From: an uncultured Veillonellaceae bacterium
Lineage (GTDB): Bacteria > Bacillota > Negativicutes > UBA1444
Direction of reading: 5' to 3'
DNA: 64,000 bases
Assembly: GCA_964638945.1 (NCBI GenBank)
Contig: CAZXCC010000001.1
Span: forward strand, 47,945-111,944
Shown here: positions 4,491-45,248 of the stretch, piece after piece
How the letters are laid out: each line of letters opens with the position of its first letter
Position numbering within the stretch: position 1 is the stretch's first letter
Translations under genes and position numbers: made by a program
Notes under the pieces: model-generated
What the model saw: the letters and a program-made list of their open reading frames with translations, nothing else
Told to the model about the DNA's origin: nothing
Databases searched by the model: none

Positions 4491-4595
4491 CGAAATTATA
4501 ACAGTGGCAATGGAGCCGCCGCAAATGCGGTGGCTTTTGCTTTTTATTTTGCGAACCGATGGCGAAAATGTGCTGAGGGGAATTGTCTGATGCAT

Positions 4596-4611: not shown

Positions 4612-4707
4612 ATAAATCTTGCTGAAACAAAATTTTGTAAAACGGCTACCGGAGATGGAGGCGATCTCCAATCTGGATTTTTTGAAAACAGGGGGGAAGT
4701 TGATACA

Positions 4708-5933: not shown

Positions 5934-5949
5934 TGGCACGGCTCTTGCA
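5934..5949 (+). promoter_or_regulatory. sigma-54 promoter TGGCACG-GCTC-TTGCA, near-perfect consensus, immediately upstream of the RBS/start of the first nicotinate cluster gene
   Basis: GG 5935-5936, GC 5947-5948; exact match to TGGCACG-N4-TTGCW. Confidence 0.75.
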
Positions 5950-8774: not shown

Positions 8775-8822
8775 TATCCGGGAGGCAGATTCCCGGCAAT
8801 CATGATAAGGAGAGTGACACAA

Positions 8823-16564: not shown

Positions 16565-17055
16565 AGACAATCAAGGGTCGTGTATGGGTTTTTGACGACA
16601 ATGTGGATACCGATCAGATACTGCCTGGCTATGCAATGGCCGAGGCTGCAGCTTCCCTGGGACGTTTTGCCATGGCTGGCAGCAAGATTCCGGATTTCTC
16701 CGGCAAGGTTCAAGCCGGTGACATTATTGTCGCAGGCAAAAACTTCGGCTGCGGTTCCAGTCGGGAGCAGGCGCCGGTTGCGCTGAAACTGGCAGGAGTC
16801 AGTCTGCTCATTGCTCCCTCTTTTGCCCGGATTTTTCGCCGGAATTCCATCAATATCGGATTGCCGGTGATGTTGGGAGATATTCGGGAGGAAGTCAAAA
16901 CAGGAGATATTATCGAAGTGGATATTGAAAGCGGCGTTATTGTCGCTGCGGAGAGAAAACTGTCAGCTCAACCTCTGGCGCCCAATGTGCTGGCAACGGT
17001 GCGGGCCGGCGGCCTGATCAACCGTGTCCGCCAAGAACTGGGTATTGCAAACTGA
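16561..17055 (+). CDS. dmdB: dimethylmaleate hydratase small subunit (LeuD-like)
   Basis: 164 aa LeuD-like swivel domain; ATGA overlap with dmdA. Confidence 0.75.
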
Positions 17056-17080
17056 ACGATATACTGCAGGAGGAACCAAA

Positions 17081-18928
17081 ATGCAAGAAAAAACCATGCG
17101 GATTATTACCGAGGACTATGACAGAGTAAAAGCATATTCGGAAACCTTTGCCGTTCCCATGCCGACCCTGGGCAAGGATGGATCGGTGGATGGTCTGCCG
17201 GCTCCATATCCGCGGGAAGTCTGCGGTGTCCAGCGCAGCGGCTACCGGATTTATGAACTGGCACAACAAGCTGAAAAAACAGGGATTCCTGTGCAGAATC
17301 CGATACTTGGGCGCAATACGGCGGAAGAAACCTATAAAGAATCGGTTGAAATGTATAATATGGCCGAAAAACTGGGCATCAAAATATTCCATTTTGTGCA
17401 CTCGGAAGCTACGCGCCATATCGATCCCTTGAACGGACGAGAACTGATCGAACAGTCGCGCGGCAAGGGCGGCATTACGCCGATGGGTGAACGAAAACTG
17501 GTGGAACTGGGCGGAGGCTCGATTCATCCGATGCGGATCAATGCAACAGGGGATACTCCGCATCTTTCGATCATCAACGCCCTGCTGGCCGGATTTGACG
17601 GAACGGACATCGGACCGGTCATTCATGTGCACTTCGGCGGCCGAGGCATCCATGACTACAAGACCAAAGTGGTAAACGGATTCCGCGCCTTGGAAATTTG
17701 TGCCGAGCACAATATGTTCGTGCAAATTGAGTCGCACAAGCACTTGAATAATATCGGCGGAACGGATGGGATGGCTCTGGCCATGTGTCTGCTGGCAGAA
17801 GGCTTGGGCGTTCTTGCCGGTCTGCCTCCGGAACTGAGCGCAGTGCAGATGAATGTGACAGGATTGAACTTGCTCGGAGATCTCGCATCAATGCGTGCCT
17901 TCAAGGAAACCATGTGGAGCAAGAGCCTGATCGTAGTGCCGGAAACCTTCCAGAATCCTCCGGGCGACCTGATTGCTGAATCGGCGCACTTTGCCCGGAT
18001 GGCGATTAGTGCAAAGCTTGGAGGCGCCCACTTCTACCGTCCGAAAGCAGCCGAGTCCGTGGGAATTCCCACTGGCGGCTCCATGGCAAAAGCGATCTGG
18101 GGAACACAAAACGTGTTCGAAAACACGGTGAAAGTGGAAATCCACGATCCGTACATCGAAGTCCGGAAAAATGAAATTCTTGATGAAGCCATGGCGGTGC
18201 TGGAAGGCGTTCTGGGCATCGGCCGTACGCTGGCGCCTGATGAAATCAACGAGAAATTCTGGCGCAAATATGACAAGGATGAACTGAGTGAAAAAATTGT
18301 CACTGCAGGCAAAGCCGGAATAATGGACTGCCCGCGCGCCGGCGGCTGGGATTTGAAACGCCATGTGCGAACGCACCGTGACAAAGACGGTATCAAACGA
18401 TATGTTCCGGGTTTCACTCCGTTGGGCGTGGATTCCGCACGTATGGCGATCACGACGGAACCGGTGGAAGTGCCGGAAGTGAAAAAACCTACCCGCAAGC
18501 AAAAAATGGTGCTGGCGACAGTTGGCGCCGATGCTCACGTCATGGGAATCAACATGATCAAGGAAGCTTTCGAAAAAGCCGGCTACGAGGTGATTTACCT
18601 CCGCGGCATGAACCTGCCGGAAACAGTGGCGGAAGTAGCGGCTGAAGCCAAGGCCGAGATTATTGGCATTACGAACCTTCTCGGGATGGGCCGCGAATTG
18701 TTCCCGAGGGTGCAGAAACGTCTGCAGGAACTGGGGATGAGCGATAAGGTCCTGCTCATCGCTGGGGGCCGGATTGCCGAAAAAGAAGAAGAACATGCCT
18801 ATTTTGAAGAAAAAATCGCCAAAGAAGGTCCGACTTTCCTCGGAGTGGAGAATTTCTTCGGGCCGGGCACCGATCCGGTCAAATGTGTCGAGTGGACCGC
18901 AAAAGCACTTGAAAGGAAGGGTCTGTAA
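17081..18928 (+). CDS. mgm: 2-methyleneglutarate mutase (adenosylcobalamin-dependent)
   Basis: C-terminal B12-binding domain with [12 protein letters not shown] (DxHxxG) motif; 615 aa, same as the E. barkeri enzyme; GGAGG RBS. Confidence 0.8.
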
Positions 18929-20061
18929 TGGGAGATATGCGTCGAATTCCCTGTGTAATTTTGCGTGGCGGCACAAGCAAAGGGATATATCTGAAATCCA
19001 ACCATCTGCCTCAGGATAAAGAAGCGCGGGACAAAGTCATTCTGGAGATTTTTGGCAGTCCGGATGTCCGACAGATTGACGGATTGGCCGGCGCCGACCC
19101 ATTGACAAGCAAAGTGGCAATCATTGGGCCGTCCACTCATCCCGGAGCCGATGTGGACTATACCTTTGGCCAGGTCAGCATCAACGCACCCTATATTGAC
19201 TATTCCGGAAACTGCGGCAATATTTCGTCGGGGGTGGGGCCGTTTGCAATCGACGAAGGTTTTGTCGCTGCGACCGGTTCCATGACCACAGTTCGGATTC
19301 ACAACACCAATACGGGAAAAATTCTGATTGCCGAAGTTCCGACGGAAGACGGTCTCGCAAAAGTAAACGGCGACTGCAAGATCGACGGAGTACCCGGTAC
19401 CGGCGCCCAAATCATGATGGACTTTTCCGGCACGGCGGGTTCGGTGACAAACAAACTGCTGCCGACAGGCAATCCTGTTGATACCATCAACACCAGCGCC
19501 GGCCCTTTGCAAATTTCGATCGTGGATGTGTCCAATCCCTGCGTGTTTGTCAGAGCAAAAGATGTGGGCATGAAAGGCGGCGAGACGCCCCAGGAAGTCA
19601 ACGGGAATCCGAAATTGCTGGGTCTCATGGAGGAAATCCGTGCCCAGGCCTGCGTGATGATCGGCATGGCGCCGGATGTGGCTACCGCCACAGCCAAGAG
19701 CCCGGCATTCCCAATGGTGGCCTATGTGTCCCCTGCGGCGGATTATGTTGATTTCACCACAGGCAAGACCATCAGCAAAGATCAGATCGATTTCATTTCC
19801 CGCATGATGTTCATGCAGGTGCTGCACAAAACCTACCCGGGAACCGGCACGGCATGTACCGGCGCAGCGGCGAAAATTCCGGGAACAATTGTCAACGAAG
19901 CAATCCCGCATATTGACTCCATCAAGATTATCCGCATCGGGCATCCGGCAGGAGTGATCGAGATTGAGGCCGCTTTTGAAAAAGGCGAGTTGTCAAGGGC
20001 TGCGTTTGCCCGAACGGCAAGGCGCATTATGGAAGGGTACGTCTACGTCAGAAATTCGTGA
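18928..20061 (+). CDS. mii: 3-methylitaconate delta-isomerase (PrpF family)
   Basis: PrpF-like N-terminus IPCVILRGGTSKG; 377 aa; TAATG overlap with mgm. Confidence 0.75.
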   Translation: MGDMRRIPCVILRGGTSKGIYLKSNHLPQDKEARDKVILEIFGSPDVRQIDGLAGADPLTSKVAIIGPSTHPGADVDYTFGQVSINAPYIDYSGNCGNISSGVGPFAIDEGFVAATGSMTTVRIHNTNTGKILIAEVPTEDGLAKVNGDCKIDGVPGTGAQIMMDFSGTAGSVTNKLLPTGNPVDTINTSAGPLQISIVDVSNPCVFVRAKDVGMKGGETPQEVNGNPKLLGLMEEIRAQACVMIGMAPDVATATAKSPAFPMVAYVSPAADYVDFTTGKTISKDQIDFISRMMFMQVLHKTYPGTGTACTGAAAKIPGTIVNEAIPHIDSIKIIRIGHPAGVIEIEAAFEKGELSRAAFARTARRIMEGYVYVRNS

Positions 20062-20083
20062 TTCATACGGGGAGTGAAAAGAC

Positions 20084-21520
20084 ATGAAGGCAAACCTTCT
20101 CGTATATGATGTCGGCAGCACCTACACCAAACTGACCGCTTTCCAGCTGGAAAAAGGCGTTCTGGATTATGTTGGCCGTTCCCAGTCCCCGACGACGATT
20201 CAGGATATTGAAATCGGTGTGCAGTCCGCACGGAGTTCGCTCGCGGAACAAGGGTTTGAAATCAGCCGGGATGCTGCTGTGTTTTCTACCAGCAGCGCAG
20301 CCGGCGGCCTCAGAATGGTGGCTCTTGGTTATATGCCGCGGGTTACGGCAAAAGCTGCCAAAGAAGTGGCCATGAGCGCCGGGGCCCGGGTGCTGGAAAT
20401 CGTCAGTTATGAAGATCCGCCGGAATATCGGCTGCAGGTACTTCGGGAAATCAAGCCGGATATCGTTCTCCTCGCTGGCGGCACGGATGGTGGCGATCAG
20501 GATTCCATGCTGGAAAATGCCCGGATCATCGTGCAATCAAAAATCAAGGCCGTCATCATCATTGCCGGGAATAAGGAAGCGCAGGGCGGAGTGGCGGAAA
20601 TCCTGAAACAGGGCGGAGTGGGATATGTCCGCGTGCCAAACGTCATGCCAACAATCCATGAGCTGAAAGTGAAGCCCGCGCGGGAGGCAATCCATGAACA
20701 GTTCATCAAACAGATTACTTTGGCAAAAGGATTAAATAAACTTCTTGATATCGTTTCCGACAAAAAGGTGACTCCGACGCCGGGGGCTGTTCTTTTGGGT
20801 GCAGAATTGCTGGCAAAAGGAACTTTTGAACAGGACGGTGTTGGAGAGGTCCTTGTCATTGACATTGGCGGCGCCACAACCGATATCCATTCCGTGTTGC
20901 CTGACCTTGATAAACTGACAATCGAGGAAAAAGGTCTGGTCATAACGAATGAAAAGCAACCTTCCTACCGGACCGTTGAAGGCAATCTGGGTCTCAGGAT
21001 CAGTGCCACAGGCATCGTGGAGACAGTGGGACCCCAGGGGGTTTTGGCCAAAATCGGCAAAAAGGAGGAAGAGCTGCAGGAAAGACTGACGGAGTACACG
21101 GCTTTCCTGGAAAAGAACCCCGAGCACATCAGCCAGTCTGAAGAAGAAAAGGAATTTGACCTGGCTCTTGCTATTGCCGCCATCGAGGTGGCGCTAAAAA
21201 GACATGCCGGCTATATTTCTCAGGAATTCAATCCGGTTATGGGCATTATTCCGGGAACACCTATCGGCCGAGATCTTCGCCGTGTCAGGCATGTGATCGC
21301 CGTGGGCGGAATCTTTACCCACCGAACTCCGGCAGAAAAATTATATGTATTGGAGCAGGCTTTTGCCAATCCGGGAATCTCGTTGCTTCCTGATGAACCC
21401 CATTTTATAGTGGATGAGCAGTATCTGCTCTACGCGATAGGTGTTCTCGGGCAAAAATACAGTGACGCCTGCCTGGATTTTGCCAGAAGGCAGTTCAATA
21501 TCGAAAAAAAAGGAGACTGA
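20084..21520 (+). CDS. GlmL/MutL-like ASKHA-fold protein, probable B12-mutase reactivating chaperone
   Basis: N-terminal LLVYDVGSTYTKLTAF actin-like phosphate-1 motif; about 480 aa like glutamate mutase GlmL; adjacent to the B12 mutase. Confidence 0.5.
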   Translation: MKANLLVYDVGSTYTKLTAFQLEKGVLDYVGRSQSPTTIQDIEIGVQSARSSLAEQGFEISRDAAVFSTSSAAGGLRMVALGYMPRVTAKAAKEVAMSAGARVLEIVSYEDPPEYRLQVLREIKPDIVLLAGGTDGGDQDSMLENARIIVQSKIKAVIIIAGNKEAQGGVAEILKQGGVGYVRVPNVMPTIHELKVKPAREAIHEQFIKQITLAKGLNKLLDIVSDKKVTPTPGAVLLGAELLAKGTFEQDGVGEVLVIDIGGATTDIHSVLPDLDKLTIEEKGLVITNEKQPSYRTVEGNLGLRISATGIVETVGPQGVLAKIGKKEEELQERLTEYTAFLEKNPEHISQSEEEKEFDLALAIAAIEVALKRHAGYISQEFNPVMGIIPGTPIGRDLRRVRHVIAVGGIFTHRTPAEKLYVLEQAFANPGISLLPDEPHFIVDEQYLLYAIGVLGQKYSDACLDFARRQFNIEKKGD

Positions 21521-21521
21521 C

Positions 21522-22394
21522 ATGAAAAAAACAACGATGCTGAGACAATTGCTGGCTCAGAAAAACATTCTGGTGGCGCCGGGAGCGCATGACGCTCTTT
21601 CGGCAAAAATTGTTGCACAGGCTGGCTTTGATGCGGTCTATTTTACCGGGTACGGTCAGGCGGCAAGCCACTTGGGCGGACCTGACGTCGGACTCATGAC
21701 GATGACCGAAATGGTAATGCGTGCCCGTAATTTTGCGGCTGCAGTCGATATTCCGGTGATTGCCGACGGCGACACGGGGTTCGGCAATGTAATCAACGTG
21801 ATCCGTACAGTAAGGGAATATGAAGCAGCCGGGGTGGCGGCCATACAGCTTGAAGATCAGGTTGCACCGAAGAAATGCGGTCACATGACAGGCAGGCAGG
21901 TTGTGGCGCTGGAAGAAATGGTCGGAAAGATCAAGGCGGCGGTTTCGGCCAGGCAGGATCCTGATTTCGTGATCATCGCCCGTACAGACGCCCGAACGAA
22001 CCTGGGAATTGAAGAAGCGCTGCGTCGAGGGAAGGCGTTTGCCGAAGCCGGTGCGGATGTTCTGTTCATCGAGTCTCCGGAAAGTCTGGAAGAAATGAAA
22101 TTGATCACATCAAGCTTCAATGTTCCTGTATTGGCGAATATGGTCGAAGGGGGCCGTACTCCGCTTATGACGGCAAAAGAACTGCAGGAACTGGGCTACG
22201 GCCTGGTCATCTTCCCCACTTCATCCACATATATTACGGCGCAGGCGGTCACCCGATGCATGCAGGAATTGAAGACCAACGGGACAACAAAAGCGTTGCT
22301 GAACGAGATGATCCCGTTTCAGCAGTTTAACGAACTGGTTGGTTTGCCTGGGGTGCGCGAGATCGAAAACAAATTCCTGCCGCCTCAAAAATAG
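21522..22394 (+). CDS. dml: 2,3-dimethylmalate lyase (isocitrate lyase / PEP mutase superfamily)
   Basis: methylisocitrate-lyase-like sequence, 290 aa; ATG at 21522 with AAAGGAG RBS (the ORF-track start at 21441 is upstream of this). Confidence 0.75.
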   Translation: MKKTTMLRQLLAQKNILVAPGAHDALSAKIVAQAGFDAVYFTGYGQAASHLGGPDVGLMTMTEMVMRARNFAAAVDIPVIADGDTGFGNVINVIRTVREYEAAGVAAIQLEDQVAPKKCGHMTGRQVVALEEMVGKIKAAVSARQDPDFVIIARTDARTNLGIEEALRRGKAFAEAGADVLFIESPESLEEMKLITSSFNVPVLANMVEGGRTPLMTAKELQELGYGLVIFPTSSTYITAQAVTRCMQELKTNGTTKALLNEMIPFQQFNELVGLPGVREIENKFLPPQK

Positions 22395-24908: not shown

Positions 24909-25553
24909 CTACTGCACGATAACGATGCCAGCCAGTACGCCTTTGGGAACACAGGCAGGGTCGGCTCCGCTGCCGATGGGATAAATATCCCAGCCGACAG
25001 AGGCTGCAAGCTTATATACATCAATCCCGACGGCTTCCATGGACGGGCGTGAGGTGAGAGCAAAACGGCATTTTTTTCCTTCCATGGCCGCGCAGGTTTC
25101 CTGCAAACCGCAGAAGCTATGACGGCAGGAACCGGCGCCAAAACCGAAGGCAAGGTAGTGGCCATCATAAAAAGCCAGAGATTCAATCGCGCTGACGGTT
25201 TTGAACACTTGCAGGTAGGCTGCGACACGTTCCTTGATGGTAGACTTGTTGCGGACGATGACTTCCGGCTCGACATCCAAGGTGAAAAAGACTGCCCACT
25301 CGTATTTTTTCAGATGTTCACGCAGTTCTGCCGGTTTCAGCGTATTTGGAGGGCAATGGGCACTCGCGCCGTAACCGAAGCAACGGGGAATCTGGCATTT
25401 CAGCACGACCCGTTCATCTACGGGAATGGCATTGGCTCGAATGATAATGGATCGGCTGGCTCCAAGCTCCAACGCTTTTTGTTCATAACGTTTGAGATGT
25501 TCCGGAAGCAGTGACTGGTTCATGTCAGTGGCAATTTTCTTCAAAAAATCCAT
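24909..25553 (-). CDS. DUF2284-like predicted metal-binding protein
   Basis: Cys-rich conserved hypothetical; start ATG after GGGAGGA RBS (the ORF track extends to 25598). Confidence 0.5.
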   Translation of the reverse strand: MDFLKKIATDMNQSLLPEHLKRYEQKALELGASRSIIIRANAIPVDERVVLKCQIPRCFGYGASAHCPPNTLKPAELREHLKKYEWAVFFTLDVEPEVIVRNKSTIKERVAAYLQVFKTVSAIESLAFYDGHYLAFGFGAGSCRHSFCGLQETCAAMEGKKCRFALTSRPSMEAVGIDVYKLAASVGWDIYPIGSGADPACVPKGVLAGIVIVQ

Positions 25554-25728
25554 TATATCGTCCTCCCTGATGGTTTTGTATCCTGTTTCTCTTATCAACT
25601 TGTTCCTGGGGATATTGTAACATTGTTTTGAAATTTGGTGGAGTGAATTCCAAACTTGCCGGTTGCTGTCACATGATTCCGAAAACTTGAAGGATTTTAA
25701 TCGAACCCCTTTTGGTATATACTGAATA

Positions 25729-28719
25729 TTGAAGTATGTTCAGAGAAGTACTCTGGAAAAGCGGGGAAGGATTTTGAAGAAATTTGTTGATTTGAAGGCG
25801 CGTTTTTCGGGAGTCCATGACCTGATCAAATTCAGGGTTACGGAAATACTATTGATATCTACTGCATATGACGGTTTTGTCCTCGAGGAGGACGGGCAGC
25901 TCACAGAACAGATTTATCATCAGTTCAACGATCTCAGCATTCCGTACATACCCAGGATTCATCGGGTGTCAAACAAGGACGAGGCACTGACCGAACTGCT
26001 GACAAGGCAGATCCATCTGATCATTACCATGTCCCGCATCAATGACACAGGTGCATTTGAAATTGAAACGGCCATACATGAAGCCTACCCGGAAATCCCG
26101 ATCGTGATGCTTTCTTACGATCGGCTGACACCGGAAATGATCGCCCAGATCAGGGATATTTCCTGCATCAACAGGGTATTCCACTGGTCGGGTGACAGCA
26201 AGATTCTGCTGGCCATCATAAAATACATAGAAGACCAGCAGAATGTTGAGGCGGACAGCAGGCTGGGAGTACAGGCAATCCTTTTGGTTGATGATTCTCC
26301 CATCTATTACTCGCAGATTTTGCCGATCATATATACGGAAATCCTGACACAGACGCGGTACCTGGTATTGCATGCCATGAATACCAGCCATGGCCTGCTT
26401 CGTGTTCGTCTGCGGCCGAAGATTCTTCTTGCGGAAACTTATGAAGAAGCAATGTCTATTATCAGCACTTACAGATACAATTTGCTGGGAGTAATTTCCG
26501 ATGTGAGATTTCCCAAGGATGGAGTGCTCAATCCATCCGCCGGTTTTGAACTTGCGCAAAGTGTGAGGGAAATGATCAGCGATTTTCCAGTGCTGCTCCA
26601 TTCGGAAGAGCAGGAAAACGCAGACAAAGCCAAAGCACTAAACATGCATTTTTTGAACAAAAACTCGCCTAACCTGCTGCATGATTTGCGCAACTTCATA
26701 ATGGAAAATTACGGTTTCGGCTCATTTGTGTTCAAGTATCCGGATGGCAGAATTATTGCAGAGGCGTCTGATATTACAAGCCTGGAAAGAATAATTCGTG
26801 ATCTCCCGGATGAGAGCCTGTATTATCACGCTGCCAATAATCATTTCTCACGCTGGTTCCGTGCCCGAACCGAATTTGAAGTAGCAGACAAATTGCGGCT
26901 GGTGGGTACGGAAGAACTGAGCAACATCGCGGACATCCGAACCTATATTCTAAAAGTGCTGAATGATTATTTTCAAAAGTATCAATCAGGCGTAATTCTG
27001 GATTTTGAAGGGCTAGCCAAAAAAGATATGGAGAATGCTTTCATTAAGCTTGGGACGGGTTCTTTGGGCGGAAAGGCCAGAGGAATTGCGTTTATTAATT
27101 CCATGATTGCGAAAGCCTGTCTGACGGATAAATACGAAGATATCAAAGTGAAGGTTCCCCGCTCATTCGTGATTTGCAGCGATGTTTTTGAAAAATTCAT
27201 CGAAGAGAATAACTTGTATCTCTTTTTTGCCAGCGCCCCGCGAGAGGAAGAGATTGCCCGAAAATTTACGGAAAGCGCTTTGCCGGCCACGATTCAGGAA
27301 AATCTGCGGGTTTTGACACAATATATAAAATGTCCGCTCGCAGTGCGGTCCTCAAGTATTTTGGAAGACTCACGCGTATTGCCTTTCGCTGGCATCTATA
27401 ATACCTACGTGGTTCCAAACAGTCATGAAGATCCGGAAATACGCTTTAAACAACTTTCGGACGCGGTAAAACTGGTGTATGCCTCGGTTTTTTACGCATC
27501 TCCTGTTCAATATGCAAAGAATGCGGATATTCGAATTGAAGAGGAAAAAATGGCTGTGCTGATCCAGGAACTCGTCGGAGAACGGTACGGTGACCTCTAT
27601 TATCCTGTCATTTCCGGCGTGGCCCAGTCCTATAACTTTTATCCGTATTATCCGATGAAACCGGAAGAAGGGACGGTAAGCCTGGCACTTGGACTGGGCA
27701 GGGCAATCGTTGACGGGGAACGTGTTTACAGATTTTCGCCGGATCATCCCAAACTGAACCCGCTATTTGCAAGTCCGGATGAATATATGAAAAAATCTCA
27801 AAACGCATTTTATGCCATTAATCTCAATACATCCGCCGATATCACTCTTCGGGCGGACGAAGGCTACACCTATGAAAAATTGTCCATATCCCAGGCAAAC
27901 AAAGATCAATCACTGGAATATATCGGCAGTACATATTCGATTGAAAATGACTGCATCTATGACAATATATATCAACCAGGTCCCAAACTGGTGACATTTG
28001 CTCCAATTCTCAAATATAACAGGCTGCCGCTTACGCAAATTATTAAAGATTTGCTCAGTCTGGGAAAACAATCCTTTGGTGCAAATGTTGAAATTGAATT
28101 TGCCGTCAATATTCCCAAGGATCCGAACAAGCCCAAAGAATTTAATTTCTTGCAAATCAGGCCGATGGTTGTCGGTAGAGAAGCACTTCAGGTCAATCTT
28201 GACGACAGGGAGGAAGCTCTGTGTTTCAGTTGCCGTACCATTGGCAATGGACTTCATAAAAATATCCATGACATAATTTTTGTCAATCCTGAGACGTTTA
28301 CCATACAGGACAGCGTTCAAATCGCGGATGAGATCGGTGAGCTCAACAGCATTCTGTTCAAGGAAGGGCGACGCTGCATACTCATCGGGTTTGGCCGAAT
28401 GGGAACATCGGACCGGTGGTTGGGGATTCCATTGACATGGGCGCAAATGTCTCAGGCACAAATTATCGTGGAAGTCGACCGGAAGGATTTGCGACCCGAA
28501 CCTTCGCTGGGGAGTCACTTCTTTCATAATCTGACCGCCACCAATATGGGATATTTCCACATCCAATACGACAATGAAGCGGAAGGGAAGATAGATTGGG
28601 ATTGGCTGACCAGGCAGCCGATTCTGGAGCAGACGAAACATGTGAAACTGGTTCGAAGGGAGGCGGAATTCAAGGCCAAACTGGATGGGAGAAACTTTAA
28701 AGGAATCGTGTACAAATAA
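25729..28719 (+). CDS. multidomain signalling protein: two receiver-like (REC) domains (first degenerate) then PEP synthase/pyruvate phosphate dikinase N-terminal (PPDK_N, ATP-grasp nucleotide-binding) domain; start uncertain
   Basis: ILLVDDSPIYY receiver motif; LGTGSLGGKARGIAFINSM resembles the PPDK_N ATP-binding region; C-terminal GFGRMGTSDRWLGIP resembles the phospho-His mobile-domain motif but lacks His. Confidence 0.6.
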   Translation: MKYVQRSTLEKRGRILKKFVDLKARFSGVHDLIKFRVTEILLISTAYDGFVLEEDGQLTEQIYHQFNDLSIPYIPRIHRVSNKDEALTELLTRQIHLIITMSRINDTGAFEIETAIHEAYPEIPIVMLSYDRLTPEMIAQIRDISCINRVFHWSGDSKILLAIIKYIEDQQNVEADSRLGVQAILLVDDSPIYYSQILPIIYTEILTQTRYLVLHAMNTSHGLLRVRLRPKILLAETYEEAMSIISTYRYNLLGVISDVRFPKDGVLNPSAGFELAQSVREMISDFPVLLHSEEQENADKAKALNMHFLNKNSPNLLHDLRNFIMENYGFGSFVFKYPDGRIIAEASDITSLERIIRDLPDESLYYHAANNHFSRWFRARTEFEVADKLRLVGTEELSNIADIRTYILKVLNDYFQKYQSGVILDFEGLAKKDMENAFIKLGTGSLGGKARGIAFINSMIAKACLTDKYEDIKVKVPRSFVICSDVFEKFIEENNLYLFFASAPREEEIARKFTESALPATIQENLRVLTQYIKCPLAVRSSSILEDSRVLPFAGIYNTYVVPNSHEDPEIRFKQLSDAVKLVYASVFYASPVQYAKNADIRIEEEKMAVLIQELVGERYGDLYYPVISGVAQSYNFYPYYPMKPEEGTVSLALGLGRAIVDGERVYRFSPDHPKLNPLFASPDEYMKKSQNAFYAINLNTSADITLRADEGYTYEKLSISQANKDQSLEYIGSTYSIENDCIYDNIYQPGPKLVTFAPILKYNRLPLTQIIKDLLSLGKQSFGANVEIEFAVNIPKDPNKPKEFNFLQIRPMVVGREALQVNLDDREEALCFSCRTIGNGLHKNIHDIIFVNPETFTIQDSVQIADEIGELNSILFKEGRRCILIGFGRMGTSDRWLGIPLTWAQMSQAQIIVEVDRKDLRPEPSLGSHFFHNLTATNMGYFHIQYDNEAEGKIDWDWLTRQPILEQTKHVKLVRREAEFKAKLDGRNFKGIVYK

Positions 28720-28946
28720 AGGTGCTTTTGGTGGATTCTTGAGATTACAGTTCTGAGCAAATAAAACCGAAAACCACACATTTGTTACAAAATGATAAAT
28801 AATATCAAAAATTATTCCCAAAAAATAAAATAATATTGTAATGAAACTGAAAATTTTGCTTGTATTGTGTATACAAAATTCAAAACCTGTTATACAATAA
28901 AGGGGAAGAAAATTGATGTGTAAAATGCGTCAGAAGGCGCAAATAG

Positions 28947-30320
<1,374 letters not shown>

Positions 30321-30574: not shown

Positions 30575-32062
30575 GTGGATTTGGAGATGTATGATAAAAA
30601 GACTCGAGAAATTCTGACATCGGGTGATTCGGAACGATTGAAGAATTTTGCTATAGAACTGTTAGGCGGAGTGAACTTACAGCAGGTTCGATGGCAAGGT
30701 TTGCTTGATGTTTTGGAAGAGGCGGTTTGCGTGATTGACGACATGGAAAATGTCATAGGGTGGAACAGAAGAGCGGAAGCTCTTTATGGGATTTCTGCGA
30801 TGGAGATTATCGGACAGCCCATTGAAAAATTTTTTTCGAATTTGCTTTTGACACGGGCCATGAAAGACGGAAAGGTGCTGCGTGAAACCTATCATAAACC
30901 TTGTCCAGGAACCCATGTTCTGATCAATGCGCAACCGATCTATTTTCGTGGAAGAGTTGCGGGGGGGGTATCCGCCGAACGCGAAATTACGGAATTGGTA
31001 AATCTGAACCAGAAACTCTCGCAAGCCAGTCAGGAAGTCCAGACTTTGCGGGAGGAGATTGACAAGATACAAGCCAAAACTGACGAATTCTCCGCTATTT
31101 ATGGACATAGTCCCCTGATTGCCGAAGCTGTCCGTGTGGCACGACGCGTGGCAACCGCCAATGTGCCGATTCTGCTTCGCGGCGAAAGTGGAAGCGGGAA
31201 GGAACTGTTTGCCCGGGCCATCCATGATGCAAGCCATCGCAATGGAAGCTTTGTTGCCATAAACTGCGGCGCAATTCCTGCCAATTTGTTTGAAAGCGAA
31301 TTGTTCGGATATGAATCAGGAGCCTTTACCGGCGCCGACCGCAAGGGGAAATTCGGATTTTTGGAACGGTCCCACGGAGGAACGCTGTTTTTGGATGAAA
31401 TCGGTGAAATGCCGAAGGATATGCAGGTCAAATTGCTCAGAGTTTTGCAGGAACAAATTTTTTACAGAGTTGGCAGCACTAAGCCTGTTCATGTGGATTT
31501 GCGTGTCATTGCTGCGACACATCGCGACCTGGAAAGAATGATAAACCGGGGTGAATTTCGTGAAGACCTATATTACCGGATGAATGTTGTAACGATTCCA
31601 TTGCCCTCGCTGCGGGAAAGGAGGGAAGATATTCCAGAATTAGTGCACCGTGGATTGCGGTATTTTGGAAACCTTCATGCAAAAGTGATCCAACGCATCG
31701 ATCCGGCGGTTATGGCAGCGCTGCTGGATTATGAATGGCCGGGCAATGTCAGGGAATTATTCAATGTATTGGAAAGAATGGTCATTCTTTGTGATGGAGA
31801 CACGCTGAACCCGGAAAATCTTCCGATCAACCTGACGGACGAAAATAGCGCAAAAACCAAATATATGGCATTGTCAGCAGGTGGTTTGAATGCAATGACT
31901 GAAGATATGGAACGCAACCTGATCCAGCGTGTGCTTGAGGAGTCCAATAATAACAAAGCTATTGCGGCGCAAAAACTGGGAATTCCGCGAAGCACCCTTT
32001 ACTATAAAATGAATAGCTTGCGTATTGGAGTCAAGGACCTGACGCAAGTGTCGGAAAACTGA
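30575..32062 (+). CDS. sigma-54-dependent transcriptional activator with N-terminal PAS domain (RocR-like)
   Basis: GESGSGKE, GAFTGA, C-terminal HTH; GTG start after GGGAGGGA. Confidence 0.85.
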   Translation: MDLEMYDKKTREILTSGDSERLKNFAIELLGGVNLQQVRWQGLLDVLEEAVCVIDDMENVIGWNRRAEALYGISAMEIIGQPIEKFFSNLLLTRAMKDGKVLRETYHKPCPGTHVLINAQPIYFRGRVAGGVSAEREITELVNLNQKLSQASQEVQTLREEIDKIQAKTDEFSAIYGHSPLIAEAVRVARRVATANVPILLRGESGSGKELFARAIHDASHRNGSFVAINCGAIPANLFESELFGYESGAFTGADRKGKFGFLERSHGGTLFLDEIGEMPKDMQVKLLRVLQEQIFYRVGSTKPVHVDLRVIAATHRDLERMINRGEFREDLYYRMNVVTIPLPSLRERREDIPELVHRGLRYFGNLHAKVIQRIDPAVMAALLDYEWPGNVRELFNVLERMVILCDGDTLNPENLPINLTDENSAKTKYMALSAGGLNAMTEDMERNLIQRVLEESNNNKAIAAQKLGIPRSTLYYKMNSLRIGVKDLTQVSEN

Positions 32063-32154: not shown

Positions 32155-32170
32155 TGGCATGGTTTGTGCA
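32155..32170 (+). promoter_or_regulatory. sigma-54 promoter TGGCAT-GGTTT-GTGCA about 30 nt upstream of the dehydrogenase operon start
   Basis: GG 32156-32157, GC 32168-32169 with canonical spacing; -12 element GTGCA has one mismatch from TTGCA. Confidence 0.55.
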
Positions 32171-39385: not shown

Positions 39386-42253
39386 ATGGGCAAAGTAAAC
39401 CGACGGAATTTTTTGAAAGGATTGGGATGCGCGGCTGCAGTGGTGACCGCATGCAGTGTACCCGGAAAATATCTGCGCCCTGTGACTGGCGCAGCAGCGA
39501 ATACTTTCCACCGCATAAGCCGAGAAAGCGAATATGGACCGTGGGCGGCAGAGTTGTATCTAAATACGGCGAAATGGAATTCGGGGCAAACTGTTGAAGG
39601 GGAAACCGTTCTATATTTGCCTTTTGGGACTCGAGCGGCGATGGAAGCCGACGGCTTCATCCCGGAACGATGGATATGTCTTGTCACGGCTGAGCGGCTG
39701 TTCGATGCAAATGGGGATTTGCGTTTGATTAATGGGGTCGGATGCGCCACCTGTCTGACACCGGGAGGATTGGCCATCGAAGGCGGGGTGCAGGGTGCTT
39801 TGGGTTCTATGGGAGAGAAATCTTTTCGAGCCTATCTGGACGTGTATGTGGAAGCCAAACGTGCTGAGGCGCACGGGGATACCAATGTTGTTGAAACAGT
39901 AAGATTTCCATTCAAATATAAACTGGCTGAAGACATTCCGGCAGGAACAGTAAGGTTGCGTGTTGATTTTGGGATTGGCGAAAACAGGGCCGGACATGTC
40001 GGCCATAGGCATAGCCTCAACGGAGAAGGGTTTGCGCGACGGCAACGCGATGGCTGGTCCGGTTTCTTCTCGGCTCCGATACCAGTGAATATGGAGCCCG
40101 GGAAGAGGCGCATCCCTTGGGTGATTATGTCCCGATGGGGATCAAACGGGCAAAGGGGGATAGTTGCCGAGGAAGATAAAGGCAGATTTGCCTTGTCTCC
40201 CAGACATATTGCTCCTGCTGATCCAATTTTTCCTATGGAGGATTCGGGTGGGAGAAAGCAGGAATATGAGGTCATTCCTGACATACTGGCTTGGAAATCG
40301 GATAAACACCGTCAAATCGAATGGGCAAGCGAGGCGGGCTGGTTTTCTGCGGAGCTGCAGATGCCATCCGGAAAAAATCTGCAATTTGACAATCTGTCCC
40401 TCATTCCCGGTCTGGATGGAACGCTGGCTGTTTCCGATATGAAACGTTGCCGCTGGCGTCCGGAAGAATATGGTGAACATGTGCTGATACTAAGGGGTTA
40501 TTGTGTCGATACATGGGGAAACCATTATGATGGCGGGGGAACATATCGATTTTGGATAGCGGAACGCCTGACGATTGCTACAGCCACTTTTCTGGGTCTT
40601 GCTTTACAGGCCGGCCGGAACTATGGGGCTCCGATCGCCATGAATCCGGCTTTTGCTGGTGAAGTTTCCATTGAACTTCAATTGTATTCTGCATCAGAAA
40701 AACAACGGCGGAAGAATTTCCAATGTTCGGGGAAGAGCAATGAGAGCGGCGTTTTTGGTCCGGCGGAAGGATTGAAGCAATTTACTCTTGATGAACCAGG
40801 AGAGTATATTGCCAGGATCCGGGGAAAAGCCACGGATAAAAAAGGGCGTTTGTGGATGGCATCGTTGACTCATGCCGGGGTCGTGGTTCCTCCGGATACA
40901 ACAATTGAAGCGCGGGGCAAAAAGATTAAAATTGGACGAGCCTATGCACTGCGCGGCGAAACACATTCCGAGGGGTATGTTGAAAAAGGATTGCCGCCGT
41001 TGCCGGCAAATGGGAAGTACTCAAGGGCTGACCTGGCGAGATTCCGGTTTCTTGACCATATCAACTATCCCTGGTTTCCGCTTGACGTGCTTCTTGTCGC
41101 GAGTGAAGGGCAAGGCGCCAACAAGATTGAACCGGTATTAACGTACGTGCGAAAAGGAGAAACGGAAGATTTAAAGCGCGGTACATTGGGAATCGGGTAC
41201 TCCGAACTGCAGTTCCCGCAATGCGAGGGCGGCTGGGACCCCTTCACCCACCCTGAAAAAATAAGGCAAAAAGGCGGATATTGGTACGCAGCGGCACCGA
41301 GGCCAGGATTTATGTCCAGATTTATGGTGGCGACCAATGGCGTATTCGCGCCATACTGGCCTACAAGCAACACCAATTTCGGCGGCCAGGCTGGCGCCTC
41401 GGCAAATGGGGATATGCCTGGTGATATCTATCGTCTGCTCGGCGGTGTCGTTGTGCCGGAAAAAAACGGACCCCCCTCCTATGCCGGCTATTTGGCCAAC
41501 GCAGTCATTTTGCCTGCCGGATCAGGAAACAACCGCATCATATCTCCTGGACTGGAAGATTTGCCAGGACCTGACGGGAAACAGGGACGTTTTTTTCTTG
41601 TTGCGGTTCGTCCGGGAACGGTTTATGGCGCAGACGCCAGATTCACGCCTTTTTTGCAGATTGACCCGGTCGTGCAGGCGCAGGTTCGCTATGAACTGAT
41701 TTCGCCAGCCGGAAAGATTTATAGAGCAGAAGGCATTGGTAACATGGAGGGTTATTTTTTTGGCAGAGAAACCTGGCTGCTCAATGAACCCGGTGTCTGG
41801 ACGTACAGGATACAGGCGGAATTTGACGGAAAGCCCGGACGTATGCCCGGATTGCCGTCAACAGGCGGATGGCTTTTTGTTACTGAAAAGCGGAACGCAA
41901 TGAATGCGGCTAAACTTGATTTGGGAGTGCCTGACAAGTTGCCGTTTGACCCGGCAAAAGGGTTCAAGGTGCAGGGGATTACGACAGGACAGAGCGTGTT
42001 TCTCGCTGCAGTAGTGCCGGGATGTGTAGTGGGTCAATGGGAGATTCCTGTGCGGACAGGCCGGTTTGAATGGCAGTTTGATCCGGGATTCATTCATGAA
42101 AGGGTTCCCGCCTATGATATCAAGCATAGCGCTTCGGGGCGCGCGCAACTCGGGCGAATCGTGCATTTGACATATTTTACACGAACCCTTACCGGTTCAT
42201 GGGAATGGGCGCGAATCATCGTGCGCGGTCCGGTGGCTTTCAACGGAACCTGA
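39386..42253 (+). CDS. large (955 aa) Tat-exported protein of unknown function
   Basis: twin-arginine signal NRRNFLKGLGCAAAVVTA; no catalytic motif recognised. Confidence 0.65.
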   Translation: MGKVNRRNFLKGLGCAAAVVTACSVPGKYLRPVTGAAANTFHRISRESEYGPWAAELYLNTAKWNSGQTVEGETVLYLPFGTRAAMEADGFIPERWICLVTAERLFDANGDLRLINGVGCATCLTPGGLAIEGGVQGALGSMGEKSFRAYLDVYVEAKRAEAHGDTNVVETVRFPFKYKLAEDIPAGTVRLRVDFGIGENRAGHVGHRHSLNGEGFARRQRDGWSGFFSAPIPVNMEPGKRRIPWVIMSRWGSNGQRGIVAEEDKGRFALSPRHIAPADPIFPMEDSGGRKQEYEVIPDILAWKSDKHRQIEWASEAGWFSAELQMPSGKNLQFDNLSLIPGLDGTLAVSDMKRCRWRPEEYGEHVLILRGYCVDTWGNHYDGGGTYRFWIAERLTIATATFLGLALQAGRNYGAPIAMNPAFAGEVSIELQLYSASEKQRRKNFQCSGKSNESGVFGPAEGLKQFTLDEPGEYIARIRGKATDKKGRLWMASLTHAGVVVPPDTTIEARGKKIKIGRAYALRGETHSEGYVEKGLPPLPANGKYSRADLARFRFLDHINYPWFPLDVLLVASEGQGANKIEPVLTYVRKGETEDLKRGTLGIGYSELQFPQCEGGWDPFTHPEKIRQKGGYWYAAAPRPGFMSRFMVATNGVFAPYWPTSNTNFGGQAGASANGDMPGDIYRLLGGVVVPEKNGPPSYAGYLANAVILPAGSGNNRIISPGLEDLPGPDGKQGRFFLVAVRPGTVYGADARFTPFLQIDPVVQAQVRYELISPAGKIYRAEGIGNMEGYFFGRETWLLNEPGVWTYRIQAEFDGKPGRMPGLPSTGGWLFVTEKRNAMNAAKLDLGVPDKLPFDPAKGFKVQGITTGQSVFLAAVVPGCVVGQWEIPVRTGRFEWQFDPGFIHERVPAYDIKHSASGRAQLGRIVHLTYFTRTLTGSWEWARIIVRGPVAFNGT

Positions 42254-42389
42254 GATTGAATCGGAATTGAATATTGAATGTAGTGCAGGAGAAGCAGGCC
42301 TTGATGTGAAATAATTAATAAGAATCGATTTGTACATGGACATGGTTGTCATTTTCGAACGCAAATGCTGGAAAACCGGAGGCGAAACT

Positions 42390-45248
42390 GTGTTTCTTCG
42401 TCTGCGAAAGACTGCAAAAAAAAGTGGCTGGGGCAGCCTGCTTTTGCTGGCTTCGATTTTTTGCGGTCTCATTTTGACAGGGCATCTATCTTTACTGCTT
42501 ACCCCTGTGGCTGCCGGAGAAACTCAGCAACGGATAATCCGCCTTGCTGACGATAAGGGGTATCCACCCTATATTTTCACTAATTCCGCCGGGCAGCCGG
42601 ATGGATTTGAAATGGATTTGTTCCGGCTGATCGAGCAGGATACCGGCCTGAAGTTCGAATGGACGCTGACCGAATTTGACAATGCGGTGAATATGCTGCG
42701 CAACGGCCAGGCAGAAATCGTTCCAGGAATGAATGTGACAGAAGACCGAAAAATGGAATTTGCTTTTTCACGCCCTTATTTGCAGGATAAGGGTGTGCTT
42801 TTTGTACCTGCGGACAGTTATCACATAAGCAGGCTGGACGATCTGGTGGGACGGCGGGTTGGAGTGCAGCAGGGGGAGGTGTCGGAGCAGTATCTGCGGC
42901 AAAACAAGAAACAACTTTCTCTGTATCTTTTTCCCAGTCAACGGGAACTTTTGCAGGCTGTGGTTGAGCGAAAAATTGATGCAGCAATCTGCAATTACTA
43001 TTCGGGACATTATTTCCTACATCAGCTGCAATTGGAGGAAAAAGTAAAGACGATTGGCGAGCCGATTTTTACCCATCCTTTCGCAGTGGCAGCTAGCAAA
43101 GATAATAGAGATGTGCTGGCAATTATAGATGCTTCGATTGAAAAATTGCAGTCAGGCGGCAGACTGGATGCCCTACAGGAAAAATGGTTTGGCGGGCAAA
43201 ATCTGATTTTGGGAATGAGCCGGCAAAAGCTTGGCTTATATGCGGCGGTTGCAACAGCTGGAATCATTGCCGTTGCTTGCGTAACCCTGTTGTTTATCCT
43301 CTTCCTGCGACGGAAAATTGTACAGGCTACCTCCGAGATTGCAGGACAGAGGGATGAACTTCACAAGGCGTATCAGGAAATGGCGGCGCAAAATGAAGAA
43401 CTGCTGGCGCAGGATGAACTGCTGAGTTTTCAGAACCGCACCCTGCAACTGCAGGAGCAAAGATTGACAGAGCGGAATCGAATTTTGGAAGCGTTGCAGG
43501 ATACGACTATCGAGATGCTGCAAATAGACGATGTGGATGAATTGTTTGCGCGCATCCTCAAGAGGGCGGCTCAGCTGGCTGGAACCGAAAGCGCAAAAAT
43601 CGACACATGGGATGCCGCAGGGTCGATGCTTCAGGCACGGGTTGCAATGGGATACGCCGGAAATATTGGACATATTCCGGGGAAAGGCCTTACGGGAGAG
43701 GTTATCCAACACGGAAAAACATTGCTGATAGAAGATTACCAGTCATGGGAAAAGCGTCTCCACGGGCCGGAAACGGACGTGATCCTTTCGGCGCTGGGCG
43801 TGCCGCTCTTGATTCGTGGCAATGTCCGGGGACTTCTCATAATGGACCACACAGAGCAAGGAAAAAGTTTTTCTCCGGAGCAGATTGCGGCAGTGGAGCA
43901 GTTTGCACATATTGCCGCAATTGTCCTCGCAAACGCCGATGACCGAGAAGCTTTGAAAACTATGGCGTATCACGATGCGTTGACGACTCTGCCAAACAGG
44001 CCGGCTCTCATGGAACGTCTCGTGCAGGAACTGGACAGGGCTATACGGGGGGAAACCTCCGGGGCAATCCTGTTGCTGGATCTCGATAATTTCAAGATGG
44101 TGAATGATTCGCTGGGGCATGCCTGCGGCGACTTGCTTTTGCAGGAACTGGGCAGGCGTTTGCATGAAACCGCTGCGGAGGCCGATATGGTTGCCAGAAG
44201 CGGTGGTGACGAGTTTGTGATTTTGTATGGCAATGTGGCTGATGACGGAGTGATTGAGGAATTTGCCGGAAGGATTATGCGATCTGTTTCCCAGCCTTAC
44301 GAGGTATGCGGCCAGCGTATGTACTGTACCATGAGCATGGGAATTGTACGGTATCCGGCTGATGGGACCGTTGCGGAAGAATTGTTCCGGGATGCGGATA
44401 CGGTTCTGCACGAAGTAAAAAGCGCCGGAAAAAATTCCTGGCGCTTCTTTGACTCGGCCATGAGGGACACGGTGTATCGCCGGATGCAGCTTGAGCACAG
44501 CCTGCACCAGGCAATGGGAAATAATGAACTGTTCGTTGTCTATCAGCCGGTTGTGGAGTTGCAGACACATCGTATCGTTGGATTTGAAACGCTGTTGCGT
44601 TGGAATAATCCGCAATACGGAAACGTCTCCCCCGTTTCATTCATCCCGATTGCTGAAGAAACCGGCTGGATTGTTTCCATCGGTCAGTGGGTCATTCGCC
44701 AGGCATGTCATTTTATGCAGAGACTGCGCCAGGATGGAAATGAAGATTTATTCGTGGCAGTCAATCTTTCGCCAAGGCAGTTGCGTCAGAGTGATTTTGT
44801 TGCGATGGTCCAGTCCATATTGCAGGAAACAGCGGTACCTCCTGAATTGCTCGAATTGGAAATCACGGAAACTCTGTTTATGGAATCAGTGGAACCGAAT
44901 CTGCAAAAAATCCGTGAACTGCGCAGTATTGGGGTCAGATTGGCTCTGGACGATTTCGGAACGGGATATTCTTCGTTGACCTATCTGAAGAACTTGCCGA
45001 TCAATACATTGAAAATTGATAAAACATTTGTGGATGATATCGTCGGGAGTTCCGTCAATGCAGCGATTCTTGGCTCGATTATTCAAATGGCTCATGGACT
45101 GGAGCTGACAGTAGTTGCCGAAGGCGTTGAAACGGAAGGGCAACGGAACGAGTTGATCCGACAGGGTTGCGACTTGATGCAGGGATATCTGTTCAGCAAA
45201 CCGGTGTTGGAGAATGAACTTTGCCGGATGTTGACAAAGAAAGCATAG
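42390..45248 (+). CDS. c-di-GMP turnover signalling protein: signal/TM - periplasmic SBP type 3 (PBPb) domain - TM - coiled coil - GAF - GGDEF - EAL
   Basis: GGDEF motif RSGGDEFVIL, EAL-domain motifs ETLLRWN and DDFGTGYSSL; GTG start 7 nt after GGAGG (the ORF-track TTG at 42330 is the alternative). Confidence 0.85.
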   Translation: MFLRLRKTAKKSGWGSLLLLASIFCGLILTGHLSLLLTPVAAGETQQRIIRLADDKGYPPYIFTNSAGQPDGFEMDLFRLIEQDTGLKFEWTLTEFDNAVNMLRNGQAEIVPGMNVTEDRKMEFAFSRPYLQDKGVLFVPADSYHISRLDDLVGRRVGVQQGEVSEQYLRQNKKQLSLYLFPSQRELLQAVVERKIDAAICNYYSGHYFLHQLQLEEKVKTIGEPIFTHPFAVAASKDNRDVLAIIDASIEKLQSGGRLDALQEKWFGGQNLILGMSRQKLGLYAAVATAGIIAVACVTLLFILFLRRKIVQATSEIAGQRDELHKAYQEMAAQNEELLAQDELLSFQNRTLQLQEQRLTERNRILEALQDTTIEMLQIDDVDELFARILKRAAQLAGTESAKIDTWDAAGSMLQARVAMGYAGNIGHIPGKGLTGEVIQHGKTLLIEDYQSWEKRLHGPETDVILSALGVPLLIRGNVRGLLIMDHTEQGKSFSPEQIAAVEQFAHIAAIVLANADDREALKTMAYHDALTTLPNRPALMERLVQELDRAIRGETSGAILLLDLDNFKMVNDSLGHACGDLLLQELGRRLHETAAEADMVARSGGDEFVILYGNVADDGVIEEFAGRIMRSVSQPYEVCGQRMYCTMSMGIVRYPADGTVAEELFRDADTVLHEVKSAGKNSWRFFDSAMRDTVYRRMQLEHSLHQAMGNNELFVVYQPVVELQTHRIVGFETLLRWNNPQYGNVSPVSFIPIAEETGWIVSIGQWVIRQACHFMQRLRQDGNEDLFVAVNLSPRQLRQSDFVAMVQSILQETAVPPELLELEITETLFMESVEPNLQKIRELRSIGVRLALDDFGTGYSSLTYLKNLPINTLKIDKTFVDDIVGSSVNAAILGSIIQMAHGLELTVVAEGVETEGQRNELIRQGCDLMQGYLFSKPVLENELCRMLTKKA

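Follow-up and report, generated by a model that had tools for sequence, protein, structure and literature searches.

A receiver-linked ATP-grasp protein family with a candidate phospho-histidine carrier domain and a recurrent glutamate dehydrogenase neighbour

Phosphoryl transfer from an ATP-grasp domain to a histidine on a swivelling domain is known from metabolism and from antibiotic inactivation. In phosphoenolpyruvate (PEP) synthase (PpsA) and pyruvate phosphate dikinase (PPDK), a PPDK_N-type ATP-grasp is followed by a swivelling domain with the motif G-G-x-T-S-H and is combined with a PEP/pyruvate barrel. Rifampin phosphotransferase (RPH, 5hv1) and the PRK06241 kinases do without this barrel; in RPH, a large rifampin-binding domain separates the ATP-grasp from a histidine domain with a canonical GG.TSH. 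Enzyme I and Enzyme I-Ntr of the phosphotransferase system are charged by PEP through a TIM barrel. Among response regulators, PleD-type proteins (REC-REC-GGDEF) place one phosphorylatable and one adaptor receiver before a cyclase output. Here we analyse a gene from a 64,000-nucleotide stretch of DNA of an uncultured Veillonellaceae bacterium (contig CAZXCC010000001.1, positions 47,945 to 111,944; hereafter the window), whose product joins two receiver-type domains to a PPDK_N ATP-grasp and ends in a domain that we propose to be a divergent phospho-histidine carrier. The best reading of the protein is an orphan two-component response regulator that uses the front half of a PEP-synthase/PPDK-type phosphotransfer machine as its output, and its family recurrently neighbours the gene of NADP-type glutamate dehydrogenase (GDH, gdh).

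Response regulators that combine REC and PPDK domains in this same architecture are a category in a published census (Galperin et al., 2018, PMC5847659), and aspartate-less receivers are enriched with PPDK effector domains (Maule et al., 2015, PMC4395418). With its receivers N-terminal to a PPDK-type domain, the window protein falls into this REC + PPDK_N class. The passages of the two papers that concern the class list the architecture only, and give no function, C-terminal domain, carrier histidine or gdh linkage. Our literature search (response regulator, PPDK, PEP synthase, GDH) found no functional or biochemical study beyond these census papers, and a search for DUF5752, a domain partly present here, found nothing.

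The gene lies in an uninterrupted plus-strand open reading frame (ORF) of 996 codons with a TTG start (25729-28719), which the original prediction had taken as the gene itself. The frame is real; its start, on the other hand, is probably further downstream. Almost all close homologues are 981 residues long and begin with MxKF.DxK.RF, which aligns with codon 16, a TTG at 25774 directly preceded by GGGGAAGGA, and the 981-residue form is therefore most likely the real one. Residue numbers below follow the 996-residue frame unless marked; those of the 981-residue form are 15 lower. The closest relatives, 73-88% identical, belong to Sporomusaceae and other Negativicutes (85% in Anaerosporomusa subterranea). 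The conservation counts given below and the structure model are based on an alignment of 95 diverse full-length homologues (32-81% identity).

The full-length AlphaFold model (mean pLDDT 89.8, pTM 0.83) has five parts, namely two (beta-alpha)5 receivers, a hairpin-plus-helices domain, an ATP-grasp and a compact C-terminal alpha/beta domain. In sequence terms, a pseudo-receiver (REC1) is followed by a canonical receiver (REC2), a DUF5752-like linker, a PPDK_N ATP-grasp and a C-terminal domain of about 170 residues. Foldseek against the PDB matched the N-terminal third to PleD and to the REC-REC protein 3luf (probability 1.0), as well as to assorted single receivers, and the C-terminal two thirds to RPH, to HpeI (a stand-alone PEP-synthase-like ATP-grasp) and to PPDK (1kbl, about 700 aligned columns). 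The two receiver-like domains and the ATP-grasp behind them were thus correctly recognised in the original prediction. The PADLOC anti-phage defence models gave no match to the protein at E<=0.1, and an Rfam scan of the window found no RNA family.

The two receivers differ in their phosphorylation residues, as had been proposed from the presence of a DD pair in the second and its lack in the first. In REC1 of the window protein, S-T replaces the acidic pair, a methionine stands at the phospho-aspartate position and a tryptophan at the lysine position. The same holds for the family: after beta1 there is S/A-S/T and no acidic pair in the 95 homologues, methionine is the commonest residue at the end of beta3 (53/95), and tryptophan follows beta5 in 92/95; the end of beta4 is variable, with serine in the window protein. 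REC1 also has conserved motifs of its own, Y-D and F-x-W-x-G-D. Since the receiver fold is kept and the phospho-acceptor aspartate and the acidic pair are gone, REC1 is a conserved aspartate-less pseudo-receiver, which fits the enrichment of such domains with PPDK effectors (Maule et al., 2015).

In REC2 all five signature residues are conserved. The LLVDDS motif after beta1 provides D188 (acidic in 94/95) and D189 (82/95), followed by D258 at the end of beta3 (85/95), S292 at the end of beta4 (87/95) and K311 after beta5 (90/95). The model agrees with this assignment, with strands at 168-172, 216-220, 237-243, 273-277 and 292-295 whose ends carry D173-D174, D243, S277 and K296 (981-residue numbering). 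D258, encoded by nucleotides 26500-26502, is the predicted phospho-acceptor. Over the whole protein, Pfam Response_reg (PF00072) scores 29.2 bits, below its cut-off of 30.2, and REC2 alone reaches 22.9 bits; an additional helix between alpha1 and beta2 probably lowers the score. Like PleD, the family thus has one phosphorylatable and one adaptor-type receiver before an enzymatic output, although here the pseudo-receiver comes first, in reversed order, and the output is a phosphotransferase module rather than a cyclase.

The linker matches PF19027 (DUF5752) with 24.3 bits against a cut-off of 23, with just profile positions 19-107 of 208 covered. Behind it, profile searches of the PDB match the ATP-grasp to those of RPH and PEP synthase, the RPH alignment spanning PLAVRSSSllED..fAG; RPH and the PRK06241 kinases are its best match in sequence and structure. 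G447-G448-K449, R540-S541-S542, E546-D547 and Q809 are invariant among the 95 homologues, and E788, E790 and R811 are each conserved in at least 89. We take these residues to be the counterparts of Lys22, Arg92, Asp321/Glu323 and Gln335/Arg337 of Clostridium symbiosum PPDK. With all nucleotide- and Mg-binding residues conserved, the ATP-grasp is predicted to be catalytically complete, with the same catalytic residues as PpsA and PPDK; because GGK, RSS..ED, E.E and Q.R are all kept, a nucleotide-binding pseudoenzyme is not expected.

Several orthologues (74-85% identity) are named phosphoenolpyruvate synthase in the databases, and with its PPDK_N domain the protein might be taken for an ordinary PEP synthase or PPDK. 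This is extremely improbable and is refuted by the domain content. Pfam finds neither the PEP-utilizers_C TIM barrel (PF02896), the chain stopping 170 residues past the ATP-grasp, nor the PEP-utilizers mobile domain (PF00391), and two receivers occupy the N-terminus. The NCBIfam PEP-synthase models reach at most 56 bits against cut-offs of 598-1063, the best equivalog scoring 55.8 against 883 over only 160 residues; taken together, the PEP-synthase, PigC/RedH and RPH equivalogs align with about 160 ATP-grasp residues at 17-56 bits against 500-1350, and that for RPH (NF041857) scores 23.2 against 999, with only the ATP-grasp aligned. As the mobile domain and the barrel are unmatched and the equivalog scores are far under their cut-offs, the name is wrong for the family. 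The domain scan thus shows no canonical complete PEP synthase and favours a signalling protein over a metabolic enzyme, as the original prediction had it. Its description of a nucleotide-dependent effector regulated by phosphorylation is likewise a fair summary.

The C-terminal domain contains two conserved blocks. The first, Y-L-L-I-G-P-G-R-W-G-S/T-S-D-P-W-L-G-I-P-V-x-W in the family, appears in the window protein as GFGRMGTSDRWLGIP, the segment in which a swivelling phospho-histidine motif with aspartate instead of histidine had been seen. The second, V-I-V-E ... P-S-Q-G-S/T-H-F-F-Q/H-N, lies about 35 residues downstream and contains His930 and the glycine (94/95 each) and the Phe-Phe pair (93/95 and 91/95). 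In the model of this domain (numbered from its own start), a hairpin (16-38) is followed by a helix (45-64), a strand (69-74), a short helix (90-93), a strand (96-102) and a loop, and then by a helix (115-123), a strand (127-131), a helix (143-147), a strand (151-154) and terminal strands. S929-H930 begin the helix 115-123, after the second parallel strand. The swivel sequence of PpsA runs through IIAEGRAIG..GPVKVI, DISEMNRI, DVLVTD, PDWEPIMKK, SAIVTN, RGGRTC-H, AAIIARELG, PAVVG, DATERM, NVTVS and GYVY, segments which we presume to correspond to the structural elements seen in PPDK and Enzyme I. Read in this way, the elements of the model would follow the canonical phospho-histidine swivel order one to one. 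By the same order, GFGRMGTSDRWLGIP belongs to the loop that follows the first parallel strand, where PpsA has TDMTDPDW, and is therefore away from the histidine loop.

A structural comparison of the C-terminal model gave scores of 6.7 with the phosphoryl carrier domain of PPDK determined by nuclear magnetic resonance (2fm4; 108/128 residues aligned, 17% identity), 6.5 with both the swivel-type C-terminal domain of Bacillus pyruvate kinase and maize PPDK, 6.0 with RPH and 4.9-5.9 with Enzyme I N-domains. With hmmsearch filters off, weak but recurrent matches also place the N-terminal hairpin, and only the hairpin, onto that of swivel domains. We consider the assignment of the modelled domain to the swivelling beta/beta/alpha fold solid. 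Its homology to the phospho-histidine domain is likely but not proven; its position directly behind a PPDK_N ATP-grasp, the expected place of such a domain, supports it. From the order of elements, His930 is quite probably the phosphoryl carrier. Compared with PpsA and PPDK, the family would then have G-S-H-F-F instead of G-G-x-T-S-H, longer loops and fused receivers, and no barrel. Like RPH and the PRK06241 kinases, it has its carrier-like domain at the extreme C-terminus; unlike RPH, it has no rifampin-binding domain, a C-terminal domain unmatched by sequence models, and two receivers plus a DUF5752-like domain before the ATP-grasp.

Alternatively, the ATP-grasp could act directly as a kinase or ligase, with the C-terminal domain binding the substrate, oligomerising or regulating, and with His930 serving in binding or as a general base. 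The swivelling beta/beta/alpha fold is indeed common to many proteins without phosphotransfer, and DRTGG, the apical domains of chaperonins and of the transferrin receptor, LD-carboxypeptidase and aconitase X are interleaved among the structural matches, in which the scores to histidine domains are moderate only. This alternative seems unlikely to us. A Ser-His-Glu hydrolase (S926/H930/E915) was also considered and rejected as weak, the match to LD-carboxypeptidase being poor and covering a two-domain enzyme.

The neighbours named in the original prediction, a DUF2284 gene on one side and gdh with a sigma-54 activator on the other, are confirmed. What it missed is that the gdh neighbour is not incidental, being conserved across phyla. 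We clustered the ORFs around the family gene in its 80 best species-level loci and counted genes as adjacent at a gap of <=400 bp. The dominant neighbour cluster is a protein of about 446 residues which Pfam and NCBIfam identify as NADP-type GDH. Its gene directly adjoins the family gene in 24/80 loci, on the same strand in 21 of these 24; where at least 1.5 kb is present on each flank (47 loci), it is adjacent in 17. Judged by record titles, the loci with adjacent gdh come from at least 12 phyla. We estimate the chance that one given single-copy gene is the immediate neighbour to be of the order of 0.1%. Among Negativicutes, the window and four of five other loci have gdh next to the family gene, in three different orientations: downstream on the same strand in the window and in one metagenome-assembled genome (MAG), downstream and convergent in A. 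subterranea and Acetonema longum, and upstream and divergent in Sporomusa sp. KB1. The adjacency therefore outlasts changes of orientation and of every other neighbour, which argues for functional coupling. At the A. subterranea locus (L108), a 102-residue gdh fragment (4554-4862, minus strand) lies on one side of the family gene and a complete gdh (8042-9397, minus strand) on the other, a possible trace of an earlier rearrangement or duplication at the gene pair.

Other associations point to the same area of metabolism. Genes for the alpha and beta subunits of a KorAB-type 2-oxoacid:ferredoxin oxidoreductase adjoin the family gene in six loci of two phyla, four from Bacteroidales (L035, L046, L055, L075) and two from Bacillota (L049, L051). 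In three of the Bacteroidales loci a second ORF of the family cluster separates them from it, and both Bacillota loci run from a large GltD-like Fe-S protein through gdh and the family gene to korA and korB. Behind gdh, several phyla have a REC-less paralogue of 581 residues, consisting of the ATP-grasp and the C-terminal domain, and then a paralogue of 1062 residues that ends in an NTP_transf_2 nucleotidyltransferase domain (L011, 5378-12522; also L022, L054, L058 and L077; Ignavibacteria, Bacteroidota and Planctomycetota). A Metallophos phosphoesterase closes the set in L011, L054 and L058 and lies beside the long paralogue in five other loci, so that the whole looks like a modify-and-reverse gene set. 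As a REC-less paralogue directly follows gdh, the gdh link is to the catalytic module.

On balance, and with modest confidence, we favour a model in which the protein is a receiver-gated ATP-to-histidine phosphotransferase at the glutamate/2-oxoglutarate node. A histidine kinase encoded elsewhere would phosphorylate D258, and the REC1-REC2 pair, by analogy with PleD, would rearrange into another oligomeric or interdomain state that releases or assembles the catalytic module. The ATP-grasp would then phosphorylate or pyrophosphorylate His930, which lies in the G-S-H-F-F motif where the carrier helix starts, and the swivel domain would hand the phosphoryl group to an acceptor outside its own polypeptide. 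Whereas Enzyme I is charged by PEP via its TIM barrel, the family would be charged by ATP via the ATP-grasp; no HPr/NPr-like acceptor is encoded nearby. Because gdh is adjacent in at least 12 phyla and the 2-oxoacid:ferredoxin oxidoreductase in two, the acceptor or the controlled process most likely belongs to the glutamate/2-oxoglutarate/ammonium node. In the simplest version, GDH itself would be phosphorylated, and the family would be the catalytic core of a covalent control of GDH, perhaps also of 2-oxoglutarate:ferredoxin oxidoreductase, with a logic parallel to that of AceK on isocitrate dehydrogenase or GlnE on glutamine synthetase. The nucleotidyltransferase-fused paralogue and the metallophosphoesterase of some phyla would then supply further modifying and reversing activities. 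This direct version has, in our view, only a minor chance of being right.

Several results weigh against the favoured model. Pfam at E<=10 finds no match in the C-terminal domain of the window protein or of 40 homologues, and the best Foldseek hits of its model in the PDB, LD-carboxypeptidases (E 0.03, TM 0.39), are not significant; phmmer and profile hmmsearch against the PDB likewise give noise-level matches only. We infer from the model both the equivalence of His930 to the catalytic histidine and its reach to the ATP site. Gene adjacency is no proof of a physical or enzymatic link to GDH, and gdh is not adjacent in one Firmicutes MAG (L003) or in most of the 80 loci. Neither an acceptor nor a kinase partner nor a phosphatase was identified in the part of the window scanned with Pfam (17-63 kb). 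Finally, alignments of the family profile with hhalign to real swivel sequences (E. coli PpsA and PtsI and 16 of 22 PpsA-like loci from viral contigs) remain at noise level, with E 0.05-0.2 and probability <=1%, and the best of them pairs GPGRWGS..D.WLGIPV with GGRTCH...ARELGIPA, not histidine with histidine.

This last alignment bears on a further alternative, in which the swivel is decayed and the catalytic histidine replaced by Asp895, the protein being a nucleotide-binding sensor or scaffold, or carrying an acyl-phosphate on the aspartate, and forming no phospho-histidine. Indeed, the pairing of GRWGS/D/LGIP with GGRTCH/ELGIP is the sole one obtained with real swivel sequences, G-R-W-G and D895 are nearly invariant, and PF00391 is not matched. 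However, at these probabilities the sequence cannot decide which residue is equivalent to the catalytic histidine, and the pairing needs the deletion of the histidine-bearing helix and of one strand-helix unit of the fold, whereas in the model no canonical element is missing or out of order and the motif occupies the loop that follows the first parallel strand. Moreover, the distant nucleotidyltransferase-fused paralogue keeps GPGRWGS and FGTHFFQD but has LGVSV instead of LGIP, and the invariant GGK, RSS..ED, E.E and Q.R of the ATP-grasp are not expected of a dead enzyme. We regard a decayed swivel as improbable. The segment noted in the original prediction is thus present and the pairing it proposed around the PEP-synthase histidine is reproduced by hhalign, but the likeness of GRMGTSD..LGIP to GGRTSH..ELGIP is not above chance; the substitution of aspartate for histidine rests on this non-significant alignment and overlooks the nearly invariant histidine 35 residues further on. 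The accompanying view of degenerate phosphotransfer motifs applies to REC1 and is otherwise mostly wrong, as the signature residues of REC2, those of the ATP-grasp and His930 are all kept.

The search for a partner histidine kinase found none among the Pfam-scanned genes of the window at 17-63 kb and no histidine kinase cluster conserved in the 80 related loci. Receivers can accept phosphate from phospho-histidine donors, and with a carrier histidine and an intact receiver in one chain the protein might be a self-contained ATP-to-histidine-to-aspartate relay, in which His930~P phosphorylates D258 of its own REC2, in cis or across a dimer. In that case the protein would stand in for a histidine kinase, powered by its ATP-grasp, and REC2 would be its output. 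We consider this very improbable: orphan regulators are common, so that an unlinked kinase is the simpler explanation, the REC-less paralogues beside gdh keep the ATP-grasp and C-terminal module, which must therefore work without a receiver, and no output domain lies downstream of REC2 in the protein.

The gene belongs, as an ordinary member, to a large regulator family that is catalogued but uncharacterised. An exhaustive HMMER search returned 4677 cluster representatives at E<=0.001 and 1075 at E<1e-30 (representatives of 50%-identity clusters); of the top 150, nearly all have about 1000 residues and match end to end. A pattern scan with one genome per species gave matches in at least 600 species, archaea included. 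The matches listed include Negativicutes, Desulfobacterota, Myxococcota, Acidobacteriota, Bacteroidota, Ignavibacteria, Planctomycetota, Spirochaetes, Chloroflexota, Actinomycetota and Thermoplasmatota archaea. In some relatives of 1523-1639 residues (P0234, P0261), two complete PPDK_N modules stand in tandem. The features of the locus are collected in Table 1.

Table 1. Features of the family gene, its product and its neighbours (nucleotide positions in the window; residues in 996-residue numbering).
Feature	Nucleotides	Strand	Residues	Basis or remark
Coding sequence of the 981-residue REC-REC-DUF5752-PPDK_N-swivel protein (most likely start)	25774..28719	+		mechanical ORF begins 45 nt upstream, at 25729
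REC1, aspartate-less pseudo-receiver	25837..26259	+	37-177	(beta-alpha)5 in AlphaFold; weak Pfam/PDB receiver matches
REC2, canonical receiver	26269..26709	+	181-327	model strands, conserved residues, Foldseek PleD and other receivers
Hairpin-plus-helices linker, N-terminal half of DUF5752	26719..26988	+	345-419 (PF19027 match)	model confident here
PPDK/PEP-synthase-type ATP-grasp	27061..28206	+	445-826	PF01326 (PPDK_N), E 1.3e-39
C-terminal domain of about 170 residues, swivelling beta/beta/alpha fold, proposed divergent phospho-histidine carrier	28207..28716	+	827-996	
Motif GFGRMGTSDRWLGIP, family consensus GPGRWGSSDPWLGIP	28387..28431	+	887-901	G, G-R-W-G, D and L-G-I-P nearly invariant
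PSLGSHFFHNLTA, family motif P-S-Q-G-[ST]-H-F-F-[QH]-N	28501..28539	+		His930, nt 28516-28518, proposed phosphoryl carrier
DUF2284 gene	24909-25598	-		neighbour of the family gene
NADP-specific glutamate dehydrogenase gene	28965..30320	+		NF006929, 715.6 bits (cut-off 536); Pfam ELFV_dehydrog
PAS/sigma-54 activator gene	30575-32062			neighbour downstream of gdh

As for the surroundings of the gene in the window and a possible co-transcription with gdh, the 245 bp between the two genes contain no terminator-like site, only a weak sigma-70-like match at 28870-28898, and no sigma-54 site precedes gdh. A perfect sigma-54 -24/-12 consensus, TGGCACGGCTCTTGCA, occurs at 5934-5949 (plus strand), and a site with two mismatches at 32155-32170 (plus strand), immediately before the Pyr_redox_2/Fer4/DAO genes downstream of the PAS-sigma-54 activator; in total, sigma-54 matches in the window are not above chance. 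Upstream of the family gene, at 17024-22394 (plus strand), lies a glutamate-mutase-type set coding for a B12-binding protein, PrpF, MutL (PF13941) and a PEP_mutase/isocitrate-lyase-like protein, which suggests that the whole neighbourhood serves glutamate catabolism. About 33 kb downstream (61421-63954, plus strand), an alpha-type 2-oxoacid:ferredoxin oxidoreductase gene (POR/POR_N/PFOR_II) is followed by an overlapping ORF of 257 residues. A 955-residue ORF at 39386-42253 (plus strand) has no Pfam match even at E<=1e-3; it is flanked by a 230-residue minus-strand ORF, also without a Pfam match, and by an SBP_bac_3-GAF-GGDEF-EAL protein (42330-45248).

Two things are new here: the C-terminal domain is recognised as a divergent phospho-histidine-carrier fold with a conserved histidine, and the family is linked to GDH across phyla. 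With more than 1000 clusters at 50% identity, in at least 600 species of at least a dozen bacterial phyla and Thermoplasmatota, the family is an unstudied output class of response regulators, whose proteins the label phosphoenolpyruvate synthase misnames. If our model is true, the mechanism of transfer from ATP-grasp to swivel histidine, known from metabolism and antibiotic inactivation, would also reach into two-component signalling, and the C-terminal domain would represent a new sequence family of phospho-histidine carriers undetected by current domain libraries. The linkage to NADP-GDH and 2-oxoacid:ferredoxin oxidoreductase suggests a new post-translational or metabolic control at the branch point of carbon and nitrogen.

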